Shown here: positions 2,211-49,163 of the stretch, piece after piece
How the letters are laid out: each line of letters begins with the position of its first letter
Position numbering within the stretch: position 1 is the first letter of the stretch
Notes under the pieces: generated by a model
Databases searched by the model: none
The model's input: the letters and a program-made list of their open reading frames with translations, nothing else
What the model was told of the DNA's origin: nothing
Made by a program: the position numbers and the translations under genes
DNA from: a virus
Virus record (IMG/VR): IMGVR_UViG_3300044712_002679
Location: 244,406-308,405 of that record
DNA length: 64,000 nucleotides
Strand: one strand, 5' to 3'

Positions 2211-3128
2211 ATGATAACATCTATATTGCATCATGGATTAGGTAATAGATTATATCAAATAATCTATACTATTGAATTAGCTAAAAAATATAATATGAAT
2301 TATTTTTTTAGTGATTATTATACAGATAATATAGAACATAAATTTAATATTCATTATAAAGATAATATTTTTAAAAAATTGTCATTTAATTATGTAGATA
2401 AAATACCATATTTAGATAATAAATATATTTTTGATAAACATAAATTAAAACAAATTAAATCAGACTTTAAACTTAAAAAAGAAAAATTGATAAATATTGA
2501 AGATATTTTTAATTTACTAAATGATAATAATACAGTATTGAATAATGATGAAACATATGTTTTAAATTTTCCACACGACAACCCAAAATCATATTATATT
2601 GAATCTAAATATGTTGATAGATATTTTTATAACGATTTATTTATTGATAAACAAATATTAAATGATATAAAAATAAAATATAACAACAATTTTAAAAATT
2701 CTATATGTATATTAGTTAGAAGAAATGATTATTGTACAAATGAAGATTTGAAACCTAGAGTTAAAGATATACTATATTATTATAAAGGAATAAAAGAAAT
2801 AGAAAAAGAAAAACAAATTGATTATATTTATATCATATCAGATGATTTTAATTGGTGTAAAAAAAATTTAATAGATTCAAGAATAATTTATGTTGATGAT
2901 GTTGATTATAATCAATTTTATTTAGCAACATTATGTGAAAATTTTATAACTGTTGATTCAACATTTATATTTTGGCCAATTGTATTAAGTTTGAATGATA
3001 ATATAATTGTAGTAAGTGAAAAAGATTCTATACATTTTAGCTATAAAGATAAAAGTTGGAATAATGATCTAGTATGGTTTACAGATATTAAATCATTTAA
3101 AAATATATCAAAACATATAACAATATGA
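2211..3128 (+). CDS. GT11-like alpha-1,2-fucosyltransferase
   Basis: N-terminal 'HHGLGNRLYQIIYTIELAKKYN' matches fucosyltransferase motif I (G-L-G-N-Q/R-x-F/Y-Q). The start overlaps the upstream stop. Confidence 0.5.
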   Translation: MITSILHHGLGNRLYQIIYTIELAKKYNMNYFFSDYYTDNIEHKFNIHYKDNIFKKLSFNYVDKIPYLDNKYIFDKHKLKQIKSDFKLKKEKLINIEDIFNLLNDNNTVLNNDETYVLNFPHDNPKSYYIESKYVDRYFYNDLFIDKQILNDIKIKYNNNFKNSICILVRRNDYCTNEDLKPRVKDILYYYKGIKEIEKEKQIDYIYIISDDFNWCKKNLIDSRIIYVDDVDYNQFYLATLCENFITVDSTFIFWPIVLSLNDNIIVVSEKDSIHFSYKDKSWNNDLVWFTDIKSFKNISKHITI

Positions 3129-4168
3129 AAATAATAATAATTACTGGATCATTTGGATTAATTGGCAGTGAAGCTGTCAGTTTTTTTTCAAAAAAATTTG
3201 ATATTGTAATAGGTATTGATAACAATATGCGTGAATATTTCTTTGGAAAAGATGCTTCAGTTTTAAAAAATGAAAAATTATTGAAAGAAAAATATAATAA
3301 TTATATACATTTTAATACTGACATTAGAAATAAAATTGAATTAGAAAAAATATTTAAAGAATATAATACTGATATTAAATTGATAATACATACAGCAGCA
3401 CAACCATCGCATGATTGGGCTGTTAAAGAACCATTCACTGATTTTTCAATCAATGCAATAGGAACATTAAATTTATTAGAATTAACTAGACAATATTGTA
3501 CAAAATCTGTTTTTATTTATACTTCAACTAATAAAGTTTATGGTGATAATCCAAATTATTTACCATTAGTAGAATTACAAAATCGTTGGGAAATTGATTC
3601 AAAACATAAGTATAGTTTAAATGGTATTGACGAAACAATGTCAATAGATTATACAAAACATTCGTTGTTTGGTGTTTCTAAATTATCCGCAGATTTATTA
3701 TGCCAAGAATATGGTAAATATTTTAATATGAATGTTGGAATTTTTAGATGTGGTTGTTTAACTGGTGAAAATCATCAAGGTGTCCAATTACACGGATTTA
3801 TATCTTATTTTTTAAAATGTGCAATAAACAATCAAAAATATAATATTTATGGTTATAAAGGTAAACAAGTTAGAGACAATATACATAGTTTTGATTTAAT
3901 AACAGCATTTTGGCATTTTTATAATAATCCATTACTTGGTGAAGTTTTTAATATGGGTGGTGGTAGAAATAATAGTACATCAATATTAGAACTTATCGAA
4001 ATATTAAAAAATGATTTTAATATTAATATGAATTTTAATTATGTTGATATACCTAGAATTGGTGATCATATTTGGTATATTTCAGATTTTAATAAATTTC
4101 AATCAATTTATCCAAATTGGAAACTTACATATAATTTAAAAGATATTATAAAAAATATGATTAAATAA
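3125..4168 (+). CDS. NAD-dependent sugar epimerase/dehydratase (extended SDR)
   Basis: 'IITGSFGLIGSEAV' is a Rossmann GxxGxxG motif. 'YGVSKLSAD' is the YxxxK catalytic motif. Size is typical of GalE or CDP-sugar epimerases. Confidence 0.7.
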   Translation: MKIIIITGSFGLIGSEAVSFFSKKFDIVIGIDNNMREYFFGKDASVLKNEKLLKEKYNNYIHFNTDIRNKIELEKIFKEYNTDIKLIIHTAAQPSHDWAVKEPFTDFSINAIGTLNLLELTRQYCTKSVFIYTSTNKVYGDNPNYLPLVELQNRWEIDSKHKYSLNGIDETMSIDYTKHSLFGVSKLSADLLCQEYGKYFNMNVGIFRCGCLTGENHQGVQLHGFISYFLKCAINNQKYNIYGYKGKQVRDNIHSFDLITAFWHFYNNPLLGEVFNMGGGRNNSTSILELIEILKNDFNINMNFNYVDIPRIGDHIWYISDFNKFQSIYPNWKLTYNLKDIIKNMIK

Positions 4169-6818: not shown

Positions 6819-8126
6819 ATGAAATTAACTCAAGGTATTCTAAAATATTGCAATATTTACGGTATTACTTTCAATGATAAATATAATGGAATAAAAACCA
6901 TTTTAACTACAGGTGATTATAATTCGACAAACACTAATATTTCACAAACATCAACGATATTATCAACTGATAAAACTTTTTATAATTCTGCATATTCTTG
7001 CACCTGTGTTAATTGTAATGTTGAAATGGGTAGACTTTTTGATTGTACATTAATTGGGTTATCTGGGTATTCAAATTATATTAATGATGGATATTTTAGT
7101 GGTTGTACACTTTCAGGATATATTATAAATGGTGGAAAGTTTGAAAATTGTGTAATAAATGAAAACAACATTTGGAATACTGGACAATGGAACAATTCAA
7201 ATGGTAATACAGATTATATAACTACTTGGAATGGTGGAATATGGGATAGTGGAATTTTTACGGGTTGTTGGTATAGTGGAACATTTAATAATGGAACATT
7301 TAAAAATCCTGGTATTTGGTATAATGGAATAGCTAATGGTGGAACTTTTAGTGGGATAACTTGGTATAATGGATTAGCACGTAATGTAAATTTCTTTGGA
7401 TGTTCTTTAATAACAGGGGTTTTCAATAATGATGATTTTAACTATTGTTATTTTTCAGGTGGAACATATAATGATGGAACAATAACAAACTCTGTAATAA
7501 GTGGTGGAACATATTATAATGTAAATATTTCAGATTGTATAATAGATGGAAATGCTGAATTAAAAAGTTGTTCGATTACAAATATAACAATTAATAATGG
7601 TAGATATTTTAGTGTAAATGGGACAAATTTATTAATTAATGATGGTAATTTTTATAGTGGTAACTATAATAATATATATTTTAATGGTGGTAACATATAT
7701 AATGGCATATACTTAAATATATCAGGGACTTCAATGAATGTCGATATATACAATGGACAATTCAATAAAAGTGTTTTTAATGGTGTTCGAATTCACAATG
7801 GTAACTTTACTAGTTGTTATTCAGCAAATGTGGATTGGGATTATGGTATTTATACTGATGGGCAAATGTATAATAGCAATTGGAAGAATGGATATTGGAA
7901 CGATGGTATATTTTCTATTGGTCAATGTACTTCATCGGGAAGTGTTAGTTCGGGTGATTGCATTTTAGAAGGAATATTGGAAATATCTGGAAATTGGTAT
8001 GATGGTCAATTTTATGGTGGATATTTTTATGGTAATTTTGCTGGTGGAACATTTCATTATGGATATTTAAATGGTGTTTATTATTCTCAGCCATTAACAA
8101 AACCAAAACCTTTCTTAAAAAAATAA
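6819..8126 (+). CDS. Gly/Asn/Tyr-rich repeat protein, probably a beta-helix or fibre-like structural protein
   Basis: Dozens of degenerate repeats of the type 'W(Y)NG..F.G..Y.GTFNNGTF' run along the whole protein. Internal ORFs 7214-7426 and 7738-7968 are repeat artefacts. Confidence 0.5.
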   Translation: MKLTQGILKYCNIYGITFNDKYNGIKTILTTGDYNSTNTNISQTSTILSTDKTFYNSAYSCTCVNCNVEMGRLFDCTLIGLSGYSNYINDGYFSGCTLSGYIINGGKFENCVINENNIWNTGQWNNSNGNTDYITTWNGGIWDSGIFTGCWYSGTFNNGTFKNPGIWYNGIANGGTFSGITWYNGLARNVNFFGCSLITGVFNNDDFNYCYFSGGTYNDGTITNSVISGGTYYNVNISDCIIDGNAELKSCSITNITINNGRYFSVNGTNLLINDGNFYSGNYNNIYFNGGNIYNGIYLNISGTSMNVDIYNGQFNKSVFNGVRIHNGNFTSCYSANVDWDYGIYTDGQMYNSNWKNGYWNDGIFSIGQCTSSGSVSSGDCILEGILEISGNWYDGQFYGGYFYGNFAGGTFHYGYLNGVYYSQPLTKPKPFLKK

Positions 8127-15361: not shown

Positions 15362-16246
15362 ATGAACATATTAAGTTTATTTGATGGGATGTCTTGTGGA
15401 CAAATCGCATTAAATCGAGTTGGAATTAAATATGATAAATATTTTGCATCTGAAATAGATGAAAATGGAATTCAAGTAACAATGGATAATTATCCAAACA
15501 CCACACAATTAGGTGATGTTACAAAAATAATTAGTTCAAATTTACCACAAATTGATCTTTTAATTGGTGGATCACCTTGTCAAGGGTTTTCTTTTGCTGG
15601 AAAACAATTAAATTTTAATGATCCTAGAAGTGTGTTATTTTTTGAATTTGTTCGGTTGAAGAATGAATGCAAACCTAAATATTTTCTTCTAGAAAATGTT
15701 AAAATGCGAAAAGATTTCCAAGATATTATAAGCGGTTATCTTGGTGTTGAACCAATTGAAATAAATAGTTCAACAGTTTCTGCCCAAGATCGAAAAAGAT
15801 TATATTGGACAAACATTCCAAATATTACACAACCAACAAACAAAAATATTTATCTTAAAGATGTTTTAGATATTTTTGTTGATGATAGCTTATTTTTATC
15901 TGATACAATAGCATCAAGGTATTTTACTGTGCCATGCACTATAAATAAAAATAAATCATGTGTTATTGGAAAATTGTCTAATCATCAGGGTGATAGAATA
16001 TTCGATATTAATTGTAAAGGTAGTTCACTAAGTGCTAGTGGTGGCAATAATGGTGCAGGTGGTTGTAATATTATACACGACCCAACTACAAATAAATTAA
16101 GAAAATTAAGTGTATCAGAATGTGAACGTTTACAAACTGTGCCTGAAAATTATACAAAATTAGCAAAAAAGACACAACGGTATAAAATGCTTGGCAATGG
16201 TTGGACAGTTGATGTTATTTCACATATATTTAAAAATATAATTTAA
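15362..16246 (+). CDS. DNA (cytosine-5)-methyltransferase
   Basis: N-terminal 'LSLFDGMSCG' is motif I (FxGxG). 'GGSPCQGFSFAGK' is the catalytic PCQ motif IV. 'ENV' is motif VI. C-terminal 'GNGWTV' is motif X. Confidence 0.85.
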   Translation: MNILSLFDGMSCGQIALNRVGIKYDKYFASEIDENGIQVTMDNYPNTTQLGDVTKIISSNLPQIDLLIGGSPCQGFSFAGKQLNFNDPRSVLFFEFVRLKNECKPKYFLLENVKMRKDFQDIISGYLGVEPIEINSSTVSAQDRKRLYWTNIPNITQPTNKNIYLKDVLDIFVDDSLFLSDTIASRYFTVPCTINKNKSCVIGKLSNHQGDRIFDINCKGSSLSASGGNNGAGGCNIIHDPTTNKLRKLSVSECERLQTVPENYTKLAKKTQRYKMLGNGWTVDVISHIFKNII

Positions 16247-17154
16247 TGAATGTATTAAGTCTCTTTGACGGAATGTCCTGTGGACAAATCGCACTAAATA
16301 GAATTGGTATCAAATATGATAAGTATTATGCATCAGAAATTGATAAACATGCTATTAATGTAACACAAACACATTTTCCAAATACGATACAATTGGGTGA
16401 TATTACACAAATCAAAAAATTAGATTTACCACAAATAGATTTAATGATGGGTGGATCACCATGTCAAGGTTTTTCGTTTTCTGGTAAACAATTAAATTTC
16501 AATGATCCAAGAAGTAAATTATTTTTTGAATTTGTTAGATTAAAAGATGAAATTAATCCTAAATATTGGTTATTGGAAAATGTAGTAATGAAAAAAGAAT
16601 ATGAAAATATCATTTCACAATATTTGGGTGTTGAACCAATAAAAATAAATAGTAGTTTAGTATCTGCACAAAATAGAGAAAGATTATATTGGTCAAATTT
16701 AAAAATAATTCAACCAACAGACAAAAACATAAATCTTGATGATATTTTAGAATATGATGATCAAATAAATCCTGGTGCTATTCGTGGACGAAAATTAAAC
16801 AAAGCTACAATTATTGGAAGACGATTAAATGATCGTGGTGTAAGAGATGATTATAATAAAGATATTCCTATTACACAATGTTTAGAAGTAAGGGCTACTA
16901 ACACCAATAAAAGTAATTGTCTAACAACCGTTGAAAAAGATAATGTATTAACTACAATGCCTATTGGAAGACATCCTGATGCGTTTATTAATAAATTACC
17001 ATTTAGATATTATACATTAAAAGAATACTGTAGATTACAAACCGTACCTGATGATTATTTTGATGGTATAGTATCAACAAATCAAGCAAAAAAAATGATT
17101 GGTAATGGTTGGACAGTTGATGTCATTGCACACATTTTGAAAAATATTAAATAA
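16246..17154 (+). CDS. DNA (cytosine-5)-methyltransferase, tandem paralogue of 15362-16246
   Basis: Motifs I, IV, VI and X are the same. The N-terminal half is about 75% identical. The target-recognition region differs. Its ATG overlaps the upstream stop (TAATG). Confidence 0.85.
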   Translation: MNVLSLFDGMSCGQIALNRIGIKYDKYYASEIDKHAINVTQTHFPNTIQLGDITQIKKLDLPQIDLMMGGSPCQGFSFSGKQLNFNDPRSKLFFEFVRLKDEINPKYWLLENVVMKKEYENIISQYLGVEPIKINSSLVSAQNRERLYWSNLKIIQPTDKNINLDDILEYDDQINPGAIRGRKLNKATIIGRRLNDRGVRDDYNKDIPITQCLEVRATNTNKSNCLTTVEKDNVLTTMPIGRHPDAFINKLPFRYYTLKEYCRLQTVPDDYFDGIVSTNQAKKMIGNGWTVDVIAHILKNIK

Positions 17155-18475: not shown

Positions 18476-19183
18476 TTATTTTATTTTATTTTTTAATTCG
18501 TTTGGTATAATTTTTTTATTCATCCAATGTTCATCTGTTGTTACGTGACCTGGACGTACAAATTTTGCAACAGATTTACCAAAATCTTTAAAATCAAATT
18601 CATTCGCAAGTCTTATAACATAACCTTCTTGTTTTTCAGTGTCAAATGTATAATTTCTTAAAAATTGTTCATCAAATATACCTCGCCAAATAATTGGCAC
18701 ATGGCATAATCCTAATAGATTACACCAATCAACAGTATCATCCCAAGATAAACATTTATTATTTTCATCCCATATCGAAAATACTTCAAAATATGATTCC
18801 AAGTTATTGTAGTGAATACTATGTTCTGCAAATAATCCTTCACCACAAATTCTCCACCCATCAGGAATTTCGTAATTAAATGTTGACCAAAATCCTTTTA
18901 ACCAATGTCTAGAAATATGATCAACACTATCTAATGAACGAGCATATATACAATCACGCATTAGATTTGAATTTTCACCATCACGTTTTTCTGTCATAAC
19001 AATTTCTTTTCCAATGAAATGATCAATGGATTTTAATATTTTGTCATCTGATTGGCAACCTTTAGACCAAGGAAAATGGTATGTACGTGGATATTTCACT
19101 TTCATAATTGTATATTTAGTCAATACAAAGATATTAATATTTTCATTAAAAACAAATTTAGCAAAAACATTTATGCTAGTCAT
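18476..19183 (-). CDS. ATP-dependent RNA ligase-like nucleotidyltransferase
   Basis: 'KYPRTYHF' N-terminal signature, and 'EKRDGEN' as ligase motif I (KxDG). The true start may be the internal Met at 19105. Confidence 0.4.
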   Translation of the reverse strand: MTSINVFAKFVFNENINIFVLTKYTIMKVKYPRTYHFPWSKGCQSDDKILKSIDHFIGKEIVMTEKRDGENSNLMRDCIYARSLDSVDHISRHWLKGFWSTFNYEIPDGWRICGEGLFAEHSIHYNNLESYFEVFSIWDENNKCLSWDDTVDWCNLLGLCHVPIIWRGIFDEQFLRNYTFDTEKQEGYVIRLANEFDFKDFGKSVAKFVRPGHVTTDEHWMNKKIIPNELKNKIK

Positions 19184-19228
19184 AAAAAACTCATATTATT
19201 TTTTTTATATATAATTAAAAAAAATAAT

Positions 19229-20275
19229 ATGAAAAAATGTTTTTTATGTAATAAAGATTTGAAACAAAGTGAAAGTTCGCATATGAAAAAATGTGCAAAA
19301 AGTTTTAATATTGAATTTAATAAAGATTTATTAAAATATAATCAAATTCAATTTGAATATTTGGACATTTTAGATTGTTCATCTGATAATATTAACAAAT
19401 TAATAAATGAAAATGGATTAGTTTTAACTGATTTTATAAAAATATATAATTTAAAAAAATCACATTATTATTTTTTGATAAAATATCATAATATAAATAT
19501 AGATGAAAAAAAATATAAAAAAAATGTTACCGAAAATCGTAAAAAAACTACATTTGAAAAATATGGTGTTGATTCTATTAATAATGTGTTAGAAATTAAA
19601 CTTAAAAAAATGAAAACCAGTATTAAAAATTATGGTGTTGATAATCCATCAAAAAATATTGATGTGATAAATAAAATAAAAAAAACTAAAATAGATAAAT
19701 ATGATGGTTATCCAAATCCATTTAAAAATAAATCTGAAGATGAAATAAAGAAAATAATGAATTTTTGTCATCAAGGATTTAAAAATATGTATAATAATTT
19801 ATCTGAACAAGATAAGAAAATAATGATTGATAATTTACATATTGGTAGAAAAAAATGGTGGAATTCGTTATCGGAAGATGAAAAACATCAAATAATAAAT
19901 AATAGAACAAGTTTTAAGATGTCTAAAATAGAAAAAAGAATACTTGATATTTTAGACTATATGCAAATAAAATATATTTATCAATTTTGGGTTAATCGTT
20001 TATCATATGATTTTAAAATATTAAATACAAATGTCATAATTGAAGTAAATGGTGATTATTGGCACGCAAATCCCATACTATATCATAAAGATCAAATTAT
20101 TAAGTATCCTAATAATGTAAAAATAACAGCATCAGAAATATGGTATAAAGATTTTTTAAAAAAAGAAGTAGCATTAAAATATGGTTATAAGATATTATAT
20201 ATTTGGGAAAATGATATGAAAACATATTCAGATGTCGATTTAATTAATATTATTAATAATCAATTAATTCTTTGA
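19229..20275 (+). CDS. Zn-finger protein with a C-terminal Vsr-like / DUF559-type PD-(D/E)xK endonuclease domain
   Basis: The start is reassigned to 19229, because the 19052 start overlaps the divergent gene. 'EVNGDYWHANP...ALKYGYKILYIWEND' parallels Vsr 'VDGCFWH...GWRVLIVWE'. The N-terminus has 'CFLCNKD...HMKKC'. Confidence 0.5.
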   Translation: MKKCFLCNKDLKQSESSHMKKCAKSFNIEFNKDLLKYNQIQFEYLDILDCSSDNINKLINENGLVLTDFIKIYNLKKSHYYFLIKYHNINIDEKKYKKNVTENRKKTTFEKYGVDSINNVLEIKLKKMKTSIKNYGVDNPSKNIDVINKIKKTKIDKYDGYPNPFKNKSEDEIKKIMNFCHQGFKNMYNNLSEQDKKIMIDNLHIGRKKWWNSLSEDEKHQIINNRTSFKMSKIEKRILDILDYMQIKYIYQFWVNRLSYDFKILNTNVIIEVNGDYWHANPILYHKDQIIKYPNNVKITASEIWYKDFLKKEVALKYGYKILYIWENDMKTYSDVDLINIINNQLIL

Positions 20276-24701: not shown

Positions 24702-24965
24702 TCATACATTTATATTATTTTTATGAAATATTTGATCAAAATTCAAATATTTATTTGCAGATATTATAAGATCATCTTTTAACATATTTTTTATATTATT
24801 TATATCAATAAATCTATTTTCTTTATCATATAAATATGTATTATAAAATGGTTTATTATCAATAATTGTCGAATATCTTATCATCGTTTTTGAACAATAT
24901 GGTGAATAATATTGTGTAATTTCATCATATTGAATTTCTGGGTATCTTTTTAAAATACCTATCAT
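24702..24965 (-). CDS. hypothetical protein
   Basis: ORF whose start overlaps the gmd stop (ATGA). Followed by a further ATGA-coupled 48-aa ORF at 24563-24705. Confidence 0.3.
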   Translation of the reverse strand: MIGILKRYPEIQYDEITQYYSPYCSKTMIRYSTIIDNKPFYNTYLYDKENRFIDINNIKNMLKDDLIISANKYLNFDQIFHKNNINV

Positions 24966-25993
24966 TAAGTTCCAATTAAACTTTTTCCACCAGTTTTTAA
25001 ATCGTGTTCCATCATAATCTTAACCAATTCTTTAAACTTCACCTTTGGTTCCCATCCTAAAATTGTACGAGCTTTTGTTGAATCACCAAGTAACAGATCT
25101 ACTTCAGATGGTCTAAAATATTTTGGATCAATTTCAATTACAACATTACCTGTATTCTTATCTATACCTTTTTCATCTACCCCACTTCCAACCCATTCGA
25201 TATCCATGTTAACATATTTACAAGCTTCTTCGATGAAATCTTTGACACTATACATTATCCCAGTAGAAAGTACAAAATCTTCTGGGGTGTCTTGTTGTAA
25301 CATTAACCACATACCATACACATAATCGGGAGAATATCCCCAATCTCTTTTTGAATATAAATTGCCTAATTTTAAAGTTTTTTGTTTTCCGTTTTTTATT
25401 TTTACTAATGCTTCAGTTACTTTCTTTGAAACAAAAGTAGACCCCCGACGTTCTGATTCATGATTAAACAATATTCCATTACTTATAAACATATCATATG
25501 ATTCTCTATAATTTTTACAAATATGGTAGGCGTAAAGTTTTGCCACACCATAAGGAGACTGTGGGTTAAATTGTGTTTTTTCAGTTTGTGGTATTTCTAA
25601 AACCTTTCCATATAATTCACTCGTACTAGCATTATAAATTTTAGATTTTAATTCCAATAAACGACAACTTTCGAGTACATTTAGGACACCTATTGCATCA
25701 ACTTGTGCAGTATATAATGGTTGTGTAAATGACACTTGAACGTGACTTTGTGCAGACAGAATATATATTTCATCAGGTTTAACTTTTAATAATATATTTT
25801 GAATAGACGATATATCAGTGATATCACCATAATATAAATGTATTTTATCATAAATATTTTCAAGTCTACCAGTGTTAAATGAACTACTTCTTCTAATCAT
25901 CCCATGTACATCATAATCTTTATCTAACAGTAATTCAGCAAGATAACTTCCATCTTGACCTGTAATTCCTAACAATAATGCTTTTTTCTTCAT
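24965..25993 (-). CDS. gmd: GDP-mannose 4,6-dehydratase
   Basis: '[42 protein letters not shown]' is nearly diagnostic for GMD. Full length is 342 aa. Confidence 0.9.
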
Positions 25994-27862: not shown

Positions 27863-30457
27863 TTACATATTTTTATTTACGATATCACATATATACATAA
27901 TATCCATACCTGTTAAATCTGGGTTATTAGGTACATATAGACCATACTTATCTACAATATCAGCAAAATCAAATGATTGTTTACCATATTTTTTTATCCA
28001 ATATGGTTGGTTTCCAATTGATCCACAGACTAATGGTCTACAATCAACACCACCATCATCTAATGCTTTTGCAATTTGTTTAATATTCGGATGAATTATA
28101 GGATATGCAAAATTTGCGATTTTACAATGTTCAAAATCTTTAATCTTCCAATAATCATTTTTGATAAATTCTTGATATAATTCATAATTCCATTGTCTAA
28201 ATATACAATTTTTTTCAATTCTGTCCAATTGATGTATTCCAATAAATGCTTGCAAATCAGTTGATCTTAAATTGAATCCTGGATAATAAAATGTATATAA
28301 ATCTTTAAAGTCATCAACATCAAATCCTTCTTTTAATTTTGATTTAAAAGGTTCATCTAAATCACGATCCCAACCATGTGCTCTTATACTTTTAAGAATA
28401 CAATACAAATCATAATCATCAGTACAGACCATCCCACCTTCTATTGTTGAATTATGTAAACATATAGGTTGCCAACCACCAACAAAATTTTCTGTATTTG
28501 GAACACAAAAATCATAAACATATTCATCATTACTATTTATTGTTTCTTTTGATCTAACACACAATAACATTAAATCATTATCGACGAATTTTTTTAATTT
28601 ATCATTATTTAAATATTCAGACTTAAACAATTTAATAAAATCACAACATTTATATGATACGTTATTTTTATTTCTTTTGGAAAATCTTTCAATTTTAAAT
28701 GTTAATTTTTTGTATGGTAATGTATTTTTTATATCAGAAACGATTATTGAATTATCTGATATTTCTACATTAGATATAATGAATTTATATTGTATTTTAT
28801 TATTTGTTTTTCTACCACATATCATTCTATTATTTTCTTTAGATTCAATAATAGAACCATTTAATCCTAACATATTAAATAAATATGAAATTTCATTTAT
28901 TAAATTTTTTGATACACTTGATACCGAAATTCTATTATCATCTACATTTGTGCCATCGCCAGCAAAATAACCATATAAAAATGATGATATATTTTCGTAA
29001 TTTGAATGAAATATAAATTTTGGTATTTGTTTATTTGATGCTCCAGATTTTATATTCAAAAAATCTCTAAAAAATATTAATAAAGTTTCAGATGATATGC
29101 AAATTGCATGGCTATGTTTATCTTCAACAATATCATCATATGATTCTAAATTAAATATTTTTTTTATAATATTTTTTACATCCTTAATATATTCAATTTC
29201 ATTTATATTAAATGAAAAACATAATCCACTTTTTTTGTATGATCCTTCGGCTAAAAAATAACCAATCAATCGACATAAATCTTCTGAAACTTCATATTTA
29301 ATTGGAATATATTTATATTTAGGTGTGTTTTTTTTAGCAATTTTTAAATTATCAGTTTCTGTTATCAAATATTCCAAGGGTAAAACCTTTCTTCTTTTCC
29401 AATTATCTTTGTTTTTATTATCTTTACTATTCCATTTGAACTTTATTTTATCTAAATCAGATTCGTTATGGTTTATTGTAAAATATGTATTTTCAGTTTT
29501 TTTACAAAAATCTAAAAAATTTAATTCTGTTATGGGGTTTGGTTGTGGAATTTTAGATGGTACTACAATATAATCACCAATATTAATATCATTTCCTTTT
29601 TTTGGTATAATGTTAAAATTTTTTGGATCATAAGAAAAAACACTATGATCTTCGGTAATTTCAACATATCTACCATTTGATAATTTTATTTTAAAAACTA
29701 TTTTGTTGTTTAGTTCGTGTTTTATTATATTTGAAGGTGATTTATATTGTGTATTATAATCATCATCGAATGTTATTATTTTTATTTTATTTACATCATA
29801 TTGATATTTATTATAGATATTTTTAATATTATCTATATTAAAAATATCATTTTCATCTAAATATGGTATTGGTGTATTAGATGACACTGACATATGATGA
29901 CCATAATAAAAGGAAAAAGAACTCATTAGACCAAATGATCCTGTTTTAATATCATTATAAAAAGAACCAATACTTTCACATGAATCTTCTAATAAAATAA
30001 TGTTATTTTGTTCACATATTTCTAAAATTTCTTTCATTTTATTAGGAAATCCTAATACGTGAACTAACATTATAACAGAAGGTTTGTGTTCTTTCACAAG
30101 TTTTTTTAGGTGATCAATATCTAATCCTAATGTTTCTTTATCACATTCACAAAGAATTGGATTAAGCCCCAATTGAATAATTGGTGAAACTGTTGTAGTC
30201 CATGACACCGCAGGAACGATTATATTTTTATTTATTAGTCTATCAGACATCAATAAACTATAAATCATTGCTAGATTTGCAGATGAACCAGAATTAAGAA
30301 AAACTGAATATTTTTTATTTTGATATTTAGAATATTTTTCTTCAAATTCTACAGTAAGCTTATTTTTAGTTAAAATAGGATTCGTTTTTAACCATTCTAT
30401 TAAAAGGTTTATATCATTTGCGTCAATTGTGTCTTTAACTAATTTAATTCGTTCCAT
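27863..30457 (-). CDS. DegT/ColD-type PLP-dependent sugar 3-dehydratase/aminotransferase, interrupted by an intein that encodes a LAGLIDADG homing endonuclease
   Basis: N-extein has the DegT fold ('...GSFGLMSSFSFYYGHHM'). C-extein is 'STIEGGMVCTDD...RAHGWDRD...GFNLRSTDLQAFIGIHQL'. The intein has block B 'EITEDHSVFS', two LAGLIDADG motifs ('LIGYFLAEGSY', 'LYGYFAGDGTN'), block G 'VYDFCVPNTENFVGGWQPICLHN' and Ser at +1. The conserved PLP lysine position reads His (verified on the DNA), as in ColD and E1 dehydratases. Confidence 0.75.
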   Translation of the reverse strand: MERIKLVKDTIDANDINLLIEWLKTNPILTKNKLTVEFEEKYSKYQNKKYSVFLNSGSSANLAMIYSLLMSDRLINKNIIVPAVSWTTTVSPIIQLGLNPILCECDKETLGLDIDHLKKLVKEHKPSVIMLVHVLGFPNKMKEILEICEQNNIILLEDSCESIGSFYNDIKTGSFGLMSSFSFYYGHHMSVSSNTPIPYLDENDIFNIDNIKNIYNKYQYDVNKIKIITFDDDYNTQYKSPSNIIKHELNNKIVFKIKLSNGRYVEITEDHSVFSYDPKNFNIIPKKGNDINIGDYIVVPSKIPQPNPITELNFLDFCKKTENTYFTINHNESDLDKIKFKWNSKDNKNKDNWKRRKVLPLEYLITETDNLKIAKKNTPKYKYIPIKYEVSEDLCRLIGYFLAEGSYKKSGLCFSFNINEIEYIKDVKNIIKKIFNLESYDDIVEDKHSHAICISSETLLIFFRDFLNIKSGASNKQIPKFIFHSNYENISSFLYGYFAGDGTNVDDNRISVSSVSKNLINEISYLFNMLGLNGSIIESKENNRMICGRKTNNKIQYKFIISNVEISDNSIIVSDIKNTLPYKKLTFKIERFSKRNKNNVSYKCCDFIKLFKSEYLNNDKLKKFVDNDLMLLCVRSKETINSNDEYVYDFCVPNTENFVGGWQPICLHNSTIEGGMVCTDDYDLYCILKSIRAHGWDRDLDEPFKSKLKEGFDVDDFKDLYTFYYPGFNLRSTDLQAFIGIHQLDRIEKNCIFRQWNYELYQEFIKNDYWKIKDFEHCKIANFAYPIIHPNIKQIAKALDDGGVDCRPLVCGSIGNQPYWIKKYGKQSFDFADIVDKYGLYVPNNPDLTGMDIMYICDIVNKNM

Positions 30458-47469: not shown

Positions 47470-48064
47470 TTGGATTCCCAATCAAGAATTTTTTATGTAG
47501 AATTCCACCAATTTCTCTTTCGTACCAACCATCATGACCATTATATTCACCTATCCAATTGACTTTTTTATTTAAAACTTTTTCAACATCTTCTTGACTT
47601 GTTATTAGTGGTACTTTTAAGTATTTCATAATGAAATTACCAAATCTATCTGATACTTCTGTATAATATCCGTAACTATTTATTTTTTTGTTGAATTCTT
47701 CAATATATCGTCTTTTACTATCATTTTCACCATCGTGTCCACCTGCTGCAATTTTAATTCCAAATTTTGTTTTTTTACCAAATACAATAATATCATAATC
47801 TGATGTATCATGAAGATCAATCCCAGCCCAATAATTAATATTTGGATCATTAAATATATCATCTGGTGATTTTATTTTTACATTACCACCAATCGAATAA
47901 TATGCAATTTTAATTAAATCAAAAAATTCATCGGATAATTCGGGATGATCTTTAAGTACTTCTTGATCTAAAACTTCAAATTCACCTCGTTTTGGCTTAA
48001 AAATTTCACCAGAATATTTTTTATTTGTAAATTCATACAAAAATTCCAAATATTTCTTAATCAT
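47459..48064 (-). CDS. hypothetical protein
   Basis: ORF that overlaps the gmhA end by 11 nt. Confidence 0.35.
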   Translation of the reverse strand: MIKKYLEFLYEFTNKKYSGEIFKPKRGEFEVLDQEVLKDHPELSDEFFDLIKIAYYSIGGNVKIKSPDDIFNDPNINYWAGIDLHDTSDYDIIVFGKKTKFGIKIAAGGHDGENDSKRRYIEEFNKKINSYGYYTEVSDRFGNFIMKYLKVPLITSQEDVEKVLNKKVNWIGEYNGHDGWYEREIGGILHKKFLIGNPIIN

Positions 48065-48145
48065 TGAAAAATTTTTATTATTATATATAAAAAAACATTA
48101 ATTTATTTTTTAATTCAAAAAACTTTATTATATTTGTATTGTAAT

Positions 48146-48361
48146 CGGGAGATAGCTCAGTTTGGTTTAGAGCGCATGTTTTTCCTCGTTTTATCTTTAG
48201 CGGGATACCAATTAGGAAAACGTGATCTTTTTGGAAGTAATTATGATTATTTGTAGAGATTGAACTTGCTAATCAATCAAAACAAAAAAAGTTTTTATGG
48301 AAAATTATATCACGAGTCACATACATGAGATCGTGTTTAGGTTCAAATCCCACTCTCCTGA
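48146..48361 (+). tRNA. tRNA-like gene with an about 140-nt insertion (intron) in the anticodon loop. Anticodon TTC (Glu) or Val, depending on the splice point.
   Basis: Acceptor stem CGGGAGA/TCTCCTG with discriminator A. D-arm GCTC-AGTTTGGTTTA-GAGC. Anticodon stem CATGT (48175-79) pairs with ACATG (48323-27). T-loop GGTTCAAATCC. No encoded CCA. The T-stem pairing is imperfect. Confidence 0.45.
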
Positions 48362-48493
48362 CAAAATTGACAATTGATGCCAGTATAGTAACCATTTGAA
48401 TTAACTGAACGACTTGGTGACAGTATATTGAGGGCATAATGGTAGACGAATTCAGATTGTCAATTTCATTAGCTTAAATTTAACAAATTATAT

Positions 48494-48667
48494 ATGAAAT
48501 TAATGTTTTATTTACGACAAGTTTTTTGTAAACACGATTTTGTTGTAGAAGAATTAAAAACAGAACAAACACATATCAAGAAATTGGGATGGGTTGACAC
48601 CCGTGTTTTTATGAAATGTGATAAATGTGGTTTTTCCCATTGGTATTGGAAACCTTATAAAAAATAA
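48494..48667 (+). CDS. possible 57-aa zinc-ribbon micro-protein
   Basis: 'CKHDF...CDKCGFSHW'. Below the ORF cutoff. Overlaps the first Met of the next ORF. Confidence 0.2.
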   Translation: MKLMFYLRQVFCKHDFVVEELKTEQTHIKKLGWVDTRVFMKCDKCGFSHWYWKPYKK

Positions 48668-49163
48668 ATTTATGAAAATATTTGTTTATAAAGATCACGA
48701 AAATGAACTCTTTAATAAATATTTTCAAATAAGATGGAAAGAACCATTAGGTCTTAAAGAATGTCCATATTTATATCGTTGGACAATTATCATATTCGGA
48801 TATACAATCAGATTACATCATTGGCTTAGATCAGATGACAATAGATATTTTCATGATCACGCTTGTGATTTGATATCAATGATCATTAAAGGCTATTATT
48901 ATAATATTATACCCAAAGATAATGATCATCTGGATGTTAATAATTCAATACGAATTAAAGCCAAACCATGGAAACCTTGGAAAGCTAAAGCTACATCTAA
49001 ACATTATCTAGAAATCCCAAAAGGTGGTGCATGGACAATATTATTACAAGGTAAACCATACCATAAATGGGGGTTTTATGTTAATGATCATAAATGGAGA
49101 CCATTAAGATATTTTCACAAATTTGGAATTATTCAAACAAAAGATTATACTGGAATAAGATGA
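48618..49163 (+). CDS. hypothetical protein (the true start is probably Met at 48672)
   Basis: ORF only. Confidence 0.35.
   Translation: MINVVFPIGIGNLIKNKFMKIFVYKDHENELFNKYFQIRWKEPLGLKECPYLYRWTIIIFGYTIRLHHWLRSDDNRYFHDHACDLISMIIKGYYYNIIPKDNDHLDVNNSIRIKAKPWKPWKAKATSKHYLEIPKGGAWTILLQGKPYHKWGFYVNDHKWRPLRYFHKFGIIQTKDYTGIR

Follow-up and report, generated by a model that had tools for sequence, protein, structure and literature searches.

The 64,000-nucleotide stretch of viral DNA analyzed here (positions 244,406 to 308,405 of IMG/VR virus record IMGVR_UViG_3300044712_002679; hereafter the window) carries at window positions 48146-48361, on the plus strand, a complete tRNA body with acceptor, D-arm, anticodon stem and T-loop, in which the anticodon loop is opened. 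The comparison of about 30 relatives suggests that the inserted segment is an expansion that is tolerated, not an intron of the classical kind. One interpretation of these data, which we favor tentatively and with a little less than even confidence, is that the element is a functional, conserved RNA gene belonging to a valine-type, tRNA-shaped family, in which the insert would be retained and the product would be a non-decoding, tRNA-like RNA. As judged from the aligned stems of the relatives, the tRNA body itself folds and is under selection.

The initial annotation had described a tRNA-like gene interrupted in the anticodon loop by an insertion of about 140 nucleotides (nt). All of the acceptor, D-arm, anticodon-stem and T-loop elements that it listed were found at the positions given for them, and the CATGT and ACATG halves of the anticodon stem lie 143 nt apart (48180-48322). 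The features of the gene are as follows; unless stated otherwise they were read from the sequence.

48146..48179 (+), 5' half of the tRNA body; sequence, ARAGORN in intron mode, guanine-cytosine (GC) content, and alignment with 17 relatives with covarying stems
48146-48152 (+), acceptor 5' strand CGGGAGA, pairing 7/7 (one G.U) with TCTCCTG
between the acceptor 5' strand and the D-arm (+), U8 and A9
48155-48173 (+), D-arm GCTC-AGTTTGGTTTA-GAGC
between the D-arm and the anticodon stem (+), G26
48175-48179 (+), anticodon-stem 5' strand CATGT
48180..48317 (+), lineage-specific insert 5' of position 34, 136-138 nt depending on the assignment of U32/U33
48318..48322 (+), CACAT, read as C34, A35, C36, A37 and U38 with a valine-type anticodon, immediately before the 3' strand of the anticodon stem
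48323..48361 (+), 3' half of the tRNA body
48323-48327 (+), anticodon-stem 3' strand ACATG
3' of ACATG and 5' of the T-stem (+), variable loop AGATC
48333-48341 (+), T-stem 5' strand GTG[TTTA]GG, in which TTTA (48336-48339) is a second expansion site
48340-48350 (+), T-loop element GGTTCAAATCC
48342-48348 (+), T-loop TTCAAAT
3' of the T-loop and 5' of the acceptor 3' strand (+), T-stem 3' strand CCCAC
48354-48360 (+), acceptor 3' strand TCTCCTG
48361 (+), A73

The first pair, C1-G72, corresponds to C48146-G48360, and A73 to A48361; CCA is not encoded, and ACA comes after A73. The T-stem is interrupted (GTG[TTTA]GG / CCCAC), a feature that the initial annotation had missed, and the gene thus lacks the continuous 5-bp T-stem expected of a canonical tRNA. 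An uninterrupted GTGGG/CCCAC stem was present in 117/117 metagenome tRNAs having the same T-loop and acceptor 3' strand.

The family was then defined from relatives of the gene, whose loci are given here as L numbers. An aligned set of 18 distinct members including the window (set A2) was prepared with the variable stretch removed, and A35-C36 was no selection criterion for it; an unbiased rescan together with manual parses gave 31 distinct members overall. Acceptor complementarity was a requirement of the finders, and 22 members were additionally selected for C1, A73 and AC. The 3' anticodon strand was chosen by complementarity, although in every case its register was the canonical one, immediately preceding the variable loop and T-arm, and two long T-stem inserts were trimmed ahead of alignment. 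In the alignment of 18, the paired fraction of cells was 97.9%; it fell to 74% when columns were shuffled and to 38-53% when the partners were slid. Compensatory double changes were observed in 17 of the 21 pairs. All five anticodon-stem pairs spanning the insert covary. C1-G72 was found in 18/18 and A73 in 17/18 members of set A2. An apparent rule of 'always U71' proved to be an artefact of a TG-anchored finder, as C71 occurs in 5/22 members from the unbiased scan. A covariance model of the family (R1) was unspecific, catching ordinary tRNAs and recovering long-insert members only as halves.

The dinucleotide A35-C36 was invariant, being present in all 18 aligned members and in 31/31 overall. 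It sits directly 5' of N37, N38 and the 3' anticodon-stem strand, while the 5' half-loop is variable in length. The initial annotation had left the anticodon as either TTC (Glu) or Val: the valine alternative stands on the kept A35-C36, and the glutamate alternative falls because the 5' side on which it would depend is unconserved. On this family comparison the anticodon of the window gene is to be read as Val (CAC), not Glu. The remaining loop positions are weakly constrained, with U33 in 9/22, a purine at 37 in ~60% and A34 in 13/31.

The length of the 5' half-loop forms a continuous series. Between the 5' stem strand and N34 there is 1 nt in L207, 2 in L164, 3 in seven members, 4 in three and 7 in L166, and the long inserts place 37 to ~204 nt before N34 in 17 members, the window included. 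A 7-nt anticodon loop is present in only 2/31 family members, as against all 35 ordinary tRNAs of the same loci, and 12 of the 14 short members have noncanonical loops, the sizes being 6, 8, 9 or 12 nt. Only 4/17 long-insert members could give U33 together with a purine at 37 after any single excision. Because so few are restorable, and because short loops of 6, 8, 9 and 12 nt are unspliceable, the insert is doubtful as an intron at the level of the family, and the continuous size series fits expansion segments rather than introns that are either present or absent.

The T-stem expansion recurs between the third and fourth pair, at the position of TTTA in the window, and is a subfamily feature: TTT in L177/L180, T in L139 and L164, 16 nt in L209, 26 nt in L148 and 30 nt in L190. 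L177 and L180, whose tRNA bodies are by eye the most window-like, have anticodon loops of only 8 nt. The 8-nt loops of L172/L175, L168 and L180 (ATTTACAT, ATTTACTT and TTTTACGA) read U33-UUA if counted from the 5' side, and tRNA finders could therefore report such over-long loops as TAA suppressors. A predicted TAA-suppressor tRNA is reported to be universal among Lak phages, with no sign that TAA is recoded (PMC8346664).

The inserts themselves are unrelated in sequence between relatives at the same site, and among 16 independent inserts no k-mer was shared beyond shuffled expectation; GAAA(A)C, considered as a common motif, occurred in only 7/16. The L139 insert (~7490-7530; also in L140 and L141) contains four tandem copies of an 11-nt unit (CATGAATAGAC / CATGAATAGTC). 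Homologous inserts were found in a single subfamily, L149/L160/L158, where helices are kept by six compensatory changes with none broken, and at least some inserts are thus structured RNA under selection. A pattern scan intended to extend the L149/L160 subfamily returned the three known members and one chance match.

The insert of the window is predicted, at minimum free energy, to form a 41-nt hairpin (48180-48220) followed by a 94-nt four-way junction whose closing helix is CGTGAT/ATCACG (48221-48226 with 48309-48314). A nested tRNA was considered and rejected: the junction is un-tRNA-like, with a 3-nt 'T-loop' and a 6-bp closing stem, and ARAGORN gave none at relaxed thresholds. Exact-pattern searches of IMG/VR and JGI metagenomes with the junction of exon and anticodon stem and with the insert returned no match, BLAST of the tRNA-like region and of the insert against GenBank phages gave nothing meaningful, a gapped pattern from D-arm to T-loop in IMG/VR returned only adjacent tRNA pairs, and no second copy of the insert was found within the window. 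Two short resemblances were observed within the window. A 17-nt segment of the insert (ATACCAATTAGGAAAAC, 48205-48221) is 82% complementary to 48630-48646, within a 57-amino-acid (aa) zinc-ribbon-like open reading frame (ORF), which could be due to chance; and 48246-48262 is an exact 17-nt direct match to 2170-2186 at the 3' end of a radical-SAM fusion ORF, for which a rough hand estimate gives ~0.06 expected by chance, so that it is probably not meaningful.

The base composition of the gene and its behavior in standard tools were also studied. The exon halves have 50% (5') and 45% (3') GC, compared with 23.9% in the window. Among segments of equal length they rank within the top 0.2-0.5% (5' half, top 0.2%). 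Default ARAGORN reported no gene at the locus, and Rfam, both at the gathering threshold and at E<=10 over 47900-48600 (701 nt), returned no tRNA (RF00005). With introns allowed, ARAGORN reported tRNA-Val(CAC) at 48146-48362 with a 136-nt insert at 48181-48316, and the tRNA body passed the default threshold when the insert was removed in silico. About 100 different cut combinations also passed, and ARAGORN alone is therefore unable to fix the anticodon. Neither the ARAGORN tmRNA search nor Rfam RF00023 gave a match at the locus; the element differs from a tmRNA, which has no D-stem, G3.U70 and an internal tag reading frame, in having a normal D-stem and G3-C70. No other tRNA was found in the 64-kb window. 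An intron-mode ARAGORN call of tRNA-Asn at 44797-45831 (-) was dismissed as a false positive, its 936-nt 'intron' running through ORFs at 21% GC and its stems being weak.

Of 67 IMG/VR huge-phage loci, many have a split tRNA-like gene adjoining a homologue of a cupin-fold gene, as do L139-L146, where the gene measures 273 nt in L143/L144, 218 nt in L145/L146 and 183 nt in L139-141. Its usual position in relatives is 7-60 nt upstream of the cupin gene and on the strand of that gene; in several loci, such as L148, L183, L188 and L199, it is 200-1200 nt away or downstream. In the window the distance is 311 nt, on the same strand, with the 57-aa ORF between. Rfam showed that the cupin gene lies within tRNA clusters of relative phages, and the relatives carrying the gene pair are IMG/VR contigs of 100-675 kb. 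As far as the literature was searched, a syntenic valine-type family of this kind, with A35-C36, a hypervariable 5' half-loop and T-stem expansion, is undescribed. Two protein-coding genes that bear on the argument are the following.

48672..49163 (+), highly conserved cupin-fold protein of 163 aa, the syntenic marker, with 660 homologues
18476..19183 (-), stand-alone RNA ligase of 235 aa, Rnl2-type adenylyltransferase family (Pfam PF09414, E = 3e-25, 89.8 bits)

In the favored reading, the 5' half of the anticodon loop is a hypervariable expansion site and the T-stem has a second one, and the insert would most likely stay in the mature RNA as an expansion segment. A35, C36 and A73 are the main identity nucleotides for valyl-tRNA synthetase. 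The RNA would still be recognizable by tRNA-processing enzymes and, going by these nucleotides, probably by valyl-tRNA synthetase, and it would not be an ordinary ribosomal decoder. Candidate roles would be a decoy for tRNA-targeting defences, a non-ribosomal valine donor, or a processing or stability element. It could even be that the family constitutes a conserved class of non-decoding, valine-identity tRNA mimics in huge bacteriophages, with the loop and T-stem serving as sites for lineage-specific structured domains, a broader proposal that we regard as possible but doubtful. Such a mimic would be processed, and perhaps valylated, like a tRNA yet kept off the ribosome. One possible use would be as a decoy or a sensor where defence nucleases target tRNAs; others would be donating valine outside the ribosome or presenting a functional RNA domain on a tRNA scaffold.

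Several other explanations were weighed against retention of the insert. Self-splicing, whether by a miniature group I intron or by an undescribed small ribozyme that excises itself, appears very improbable. With boundaries at 48180|48181 and 48316|48317 the 5' exon ends in U (U48180) and the insert in G (G48316), and the remark in the initial annotation that there is no obvious omega-G is thus not strictly true under the ARAGORN boundaries. The 5' exon can also pair with AACGUG inside the insert as a P1-like helix, and a true group I intron is present in the tRNA-Asn of the relative L147. However, the P1-like helix places U-A rather than U.G at the splice site, its only U.G pair being 3 bp off, and the insert has neither a P3-P8 core nor a P10. 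The insert had been judged too short for a group I intron, and its 136 nt indeed fall below the 184-894 nt of 333 surveyed bacterial tRNA group I introns (PMC13011429). Neither RF00028 nor any ribozyme family was matched at E<=10 on the 701 nt, and likewise none for the family members in 20 relatives; the inserts of relatives range from 1 to ~204 nt with no common motif, which is incompatible with a conserved catalytic core. A group II intron or a small self-cleaving ribozyme gave no boundary or Rfam signal. The long bulge-helix-bulge (BHB) intron suggested at the outset, an archaeal- or eukaryal-type element that would be cut by a splicing endonuclease, is effectively refuted. It is true that insertions occur at two places (anticodon loop and T-stem), as in some archaeal tRNAs, and that geometric 3-4-3 matches appear when U-runs pair with A-runs; but these would leave ~17 extra nt on the CATGT/ACATG stem and never a 7-nt loop, and the bulge-helix-bulge fold test that had been proposed, run as a scripted search, gave no 3-4-3 motif leaving a 7-nt loop. 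A 3' cut beside the stem would lose the conserved A35-C36, a BHB intron could not be as small as the 1-4-nt inserts of the T-stem, and the insert sizes run continuously from 1 to ~204 nt. The hosts, moreover, are bacteria, because relatives carry a tmRNA (L193) and a sigma-70 gene (beside the homologue in L007), to which T4-like genes can be added as bacterial markers of the lineage, and no splicing endonuclease domain was found in 35 window ORFs (Pfam) or in the precomputed annotations covering ~40-58 kb.

The main rival is a true intron-containing tRNA-Val(CAC), possible although on balance unlikely, from which protein endonucleases of the host or phage would excise the 136 nt and an Rnl2-type ligase would seal the halves to give a working tRNA; tRNA-processing RNases might act on the structured insert while the halves are held by the tRNA fold. 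A number of observations count for such a route and against retention. In the window, which is one of the four restorable members, excision would give the perfect loop UUCACAU (U32 U33 C34 A35 C36 A37 U38), with U at position -1 and G as the final base of the insert, and an RNA ligase gene is present at 18476-19183. The tRNA-Asn and tRNA-Arg of relatives carry ~100-nt non-group-I inserts whose removal gives canonical loops, which suggests that some excision pathway exists; these inserts hold a nested tRNA-like cloverleaf, a possible handle for RNase P/RNase Z, and the window insert is loosely similar in layout, with its hairpin and four-way junction. 'Enigmatic introns' are recorded for Lak megaphage tRNAs, one of them possibly encoding a tRNA (PMC6784885, PMC13037316). 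In addition, the predicted fold of the window insert gains no stability over shuffled sequence (z = -0.8), no homologue of it was found in phage, viral or metagenome collections, part of the family conservation arises by construction because the finders required acceptor complementarity and, in 22 members, C1, A73 and AC, and retention is itself a conclusion that we infer from sequence. Against splicing, 13/17 long-insert relatives are unable to restore U33 and a purine at 37, 12/14 short relatives have noncanonical loops beyond repair by splicing, and the 4-nt T-stem insert would stay in the product. There are no conserved splice-site nucleotides and no common insert motif; the four-way junction of the window is un-tRNA-like in detail, with no nested tRNA by ARAGORN; and phage RNA ligases are common for tRNA repair, hence unspecific evidence. 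The ligase would be a candidate exon-joining enzyme only if splicing is protein-dependent, and its membership in any such system is presumed. A cis-acting processing or stability element, in which the RNA would provide RNase P/Z 'punctuation' for the adjacent cupin mRNA instead of acting in trans, is improbable. The element does share a strand with the cupin gene and usually lies close upstream (7-60 nt) in relatives, and tRNA-shaped elements are natural RNase P/Z substrates; but in L148, L183, L188 and L199 it is 200-1200 nt away or downstream, in the window 311 nt and the 57-aa ORF intervene, and a processing signal would not need an invariant A35-C36. That the locus is simply a dead tRNA gene, disrupted by two insertions and nonfunctional, as the initial annotation had allowed, seems more improbable still. 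Standard tools miss it, it has two structural lesions relative to ordinary tRNAs, no further tRNA was found in the 64-kb window, L002 and L003 (the closest relatives of the upstream neighbor gene) are without the element at that junction, and the relative L158 seems degenerate in the acceptor stem and T-loop. Yet all stems are intact with no substitution-type damage, a high GC content is kept in a genome of 24% GC, all family invariants are there (C1-G72, A73, A35-C36 and the T-loop), both 'lesions' are recurrent, position-specific family features flanked by covariation, and divergent phages have conserved the architecture, the stems and the key nucleotides.

Other tRNA genes at related loci were also recorded. 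L193 (1705-1879) and L194 (1176-1351) encode tRNA-Asn, and L194 (889-1066) tRNA-Arg(TCT), with 101-104-nt non-group-I anticodon-loop inserts. Each of these inserts has a 30-36-nt leader followed by a nested tRNA-like cloverleaf that occupies the 3' two-thirds and abuts the 3' exon; the leader motif, ATAC.GA.T..T.CAC.GAAA(A)CG.A, forms a hairpin of 4 bp whose loop is AC(C/U)GAAA(A)C. At 1244-1513, L147 has a tRNA-Asn(GTT) that is interrupted at position 35/36 by a genuine group I intron (RF00028, 70 bits); tRNA-Asn introns of Patescibacteria have recently been described at this site. In L134 (~2749-3030) an intact tRNA-Pro(GGG) is followed ~250 nt on by a second copy of its 3' half only, the arrangement that results when an element integrates into a tRNA gene. 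The huge-phage contig L193 encodes a tmRNA (Rfam RF00023, 100 bits) at 3033-3440, just downstream of the cupin gene.

Interrupted tRNAs have been reported from other large phages. Lak megaphage tRNAs "contain enigmatic introns", one of which may encode a tRNA (Devoto et al. 2019, PMC6784885); later work uses tRNAscan-SE in eukaryotic mode because of them (Crisci et al. 2021, PMC8346664), and a 2026 survey puts the share of alternatively coded jumbo phages with sequences of this kind at 77% (PMC13037316). The accessible parts of these three papers give no mechanism. The window gene resembles the Lak and jumbo-phage cases in that a sequence of non-group-I type, tens to hundreds of nt long, interrupts its anticodon loop, that bacterial-mode tRNA finders miss it, and that its context is an AT-rich large phage; the nested tRNA-like cloverleaf in some related-locus inserts also recalls what is reported for a Lak tRNA-Thr. 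Since its anticodon-loop split matches no intron or ribozyme family and its context is that of a huge phage, the gene is, on sequence criteria, a member of the huge-phage interrupted ('enigmatic intron') tRNA phenomenon from a non-Lak lineage. The lineage is distinct in that its cupin is unmatched in Lak, the sole similarity to Lak being an ordinary tRNA(CAU). A single syntenic valine-type family, continuous loop sizes, noncanonical short loops and a T-stem site are features not described in the accessible parts of the Lak and jumbo-phage papers, and they argue against simple intron logic. Group I introns, as in cyanobacterial tRNA-Leu(UAA) and Patescibacteria tRNA-Asn/Asp (PMC13011429), likewise insert inside the anticodon loop of bacterial-type tRNAs, and a U at -1 and a terminal insert G are possible in the window; unlike them, the window insert has 136 nt, no covariance-model match, no U.G and no core, and the inserts of its relatives are unconserved. 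The likeness to BHB introns is that of an interrupted tRNA with inserts possible at several positions, and the differences are that no motif stands in a productive register, that the host is bacterial and that inserts can be as small as 1-4 nt.

Parallels to a retained, non-decoding RNA may be the valine-accepting tRNA-like structure of turnip yellow mosaic virus (TYMV) and the non-proteinogenic tRNA-Gly with which Staphylococcus builds its cell wall; both have a tRNA-like acceptor/T domain with synthetase identity elements and little or no ribosomal use. The Staphylococcus tRNA-Gly is known to carry T-stem changes by which EF-Tu binding is reduced. We know of no anticodon-loop expansion segments in either. 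The settings also differ, TYMV being an RNA plant virus and the Staphylococcus tRNA-Gly residing on bacterial chromosomes. Aminoacylation of the window RNA is predicted from its identity nucleotides. Phage tRNAs with anticodon-loop mutations evade host anticodon nucleases, according to the available part of one study (van den Berg et al. 2023, PMC10264068). As in that material, the phage anticodon loops here deviate from the ordinary form, a deviation explained there by pressure from tRNA-targeting defences; in contrast to those mutated, still-decoding tRNAs, the loop is here enlarged up to ~200 nt with U33 and purine 37 lost. By analogy, nuclease evasion would be a plausible selective setting for the family.

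The window is part of an AT-rich large bacteriophage with a genome of at least 64 kb. Its genes include a T4 gp30.3-like gene, NUMOD and I-HmuI-type homing-endonuclease domains, a cold-shock protein and glycan-synthesis genes. The cupin has 660 homologues of 57-82% identity on contigs up to 675 kb, belongs to no Pfam or NCBIfam family, and is predicted with confidence by AlphaFold2 (AF2; mean predicted local distance difference test, pLDDT, 91). A fold search with this model matched generic metal cupins only and gave no specific function, and hence no functional link between the tRNA-like gene and the cupin. The RNA ligase is without an NCBIfam name, and an ORF next to it (19052-20275, +) matches DUF7487. 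Directly downstream of the tRNA-like gene is a perfect 11-bp inverted repeat, 48364-48374 / 48456-48466 (AAATTGACAAT / ATTGTCAATTT), with TTGACA in each arm, enclosing an 81-nt block of raised GC (35-38%) whose fold is not more stable than shuffles (z = -0.7). The relatives of the upstream 201-aa neighbor gene (L002-L010) are without the tRNA-like element, and in one close relative (L003, 2-1321) a 439-aa ORF that is by eye TnpB/IS605 OrfB-like takes its place.

Elsewhere in the window, a DegT/DnrJ-type aminotransferase gene (27863-30457, -) is split by an intein with a LAGLIDADG homing-endonuclease domain, and an 813-aa protein (40166-42607, +) has major-vault-protein shoulder and repeat domains (PF11978, E = 2e-26; PF17795), which is unusual for a phage. 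A 715-aa fusion of a family-2 glycosyltransferase and a radical-SAM/SPASM domain (61-2208, +) heads a glycan-synthesis cluster with a fucosyltransferase-like GT11, epimerases and a GDP-mannose dehydratase at 24965-25993. Two C5 cytosine DNA methylase genes lie in tandem at 15362-17154 (+).

For annotation, the consequence is that standard tools miss the genes of this family entirely. The family also offers a tractable test case, being one syntenic group of ~30 distinct members with strong covariation, clear invariants and a continuous series of insert sizes. Retained inserts would make these genes a viral tRNA mimic of a new class, one that carries expansion segments; removal of the inserts would require bacteria or their phages to have a tRNA splicing route that depends on proteins and is neither group I nor group II nor BHB. 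Either outcome bears on how phages may manipulate or protect the tRNA pool.

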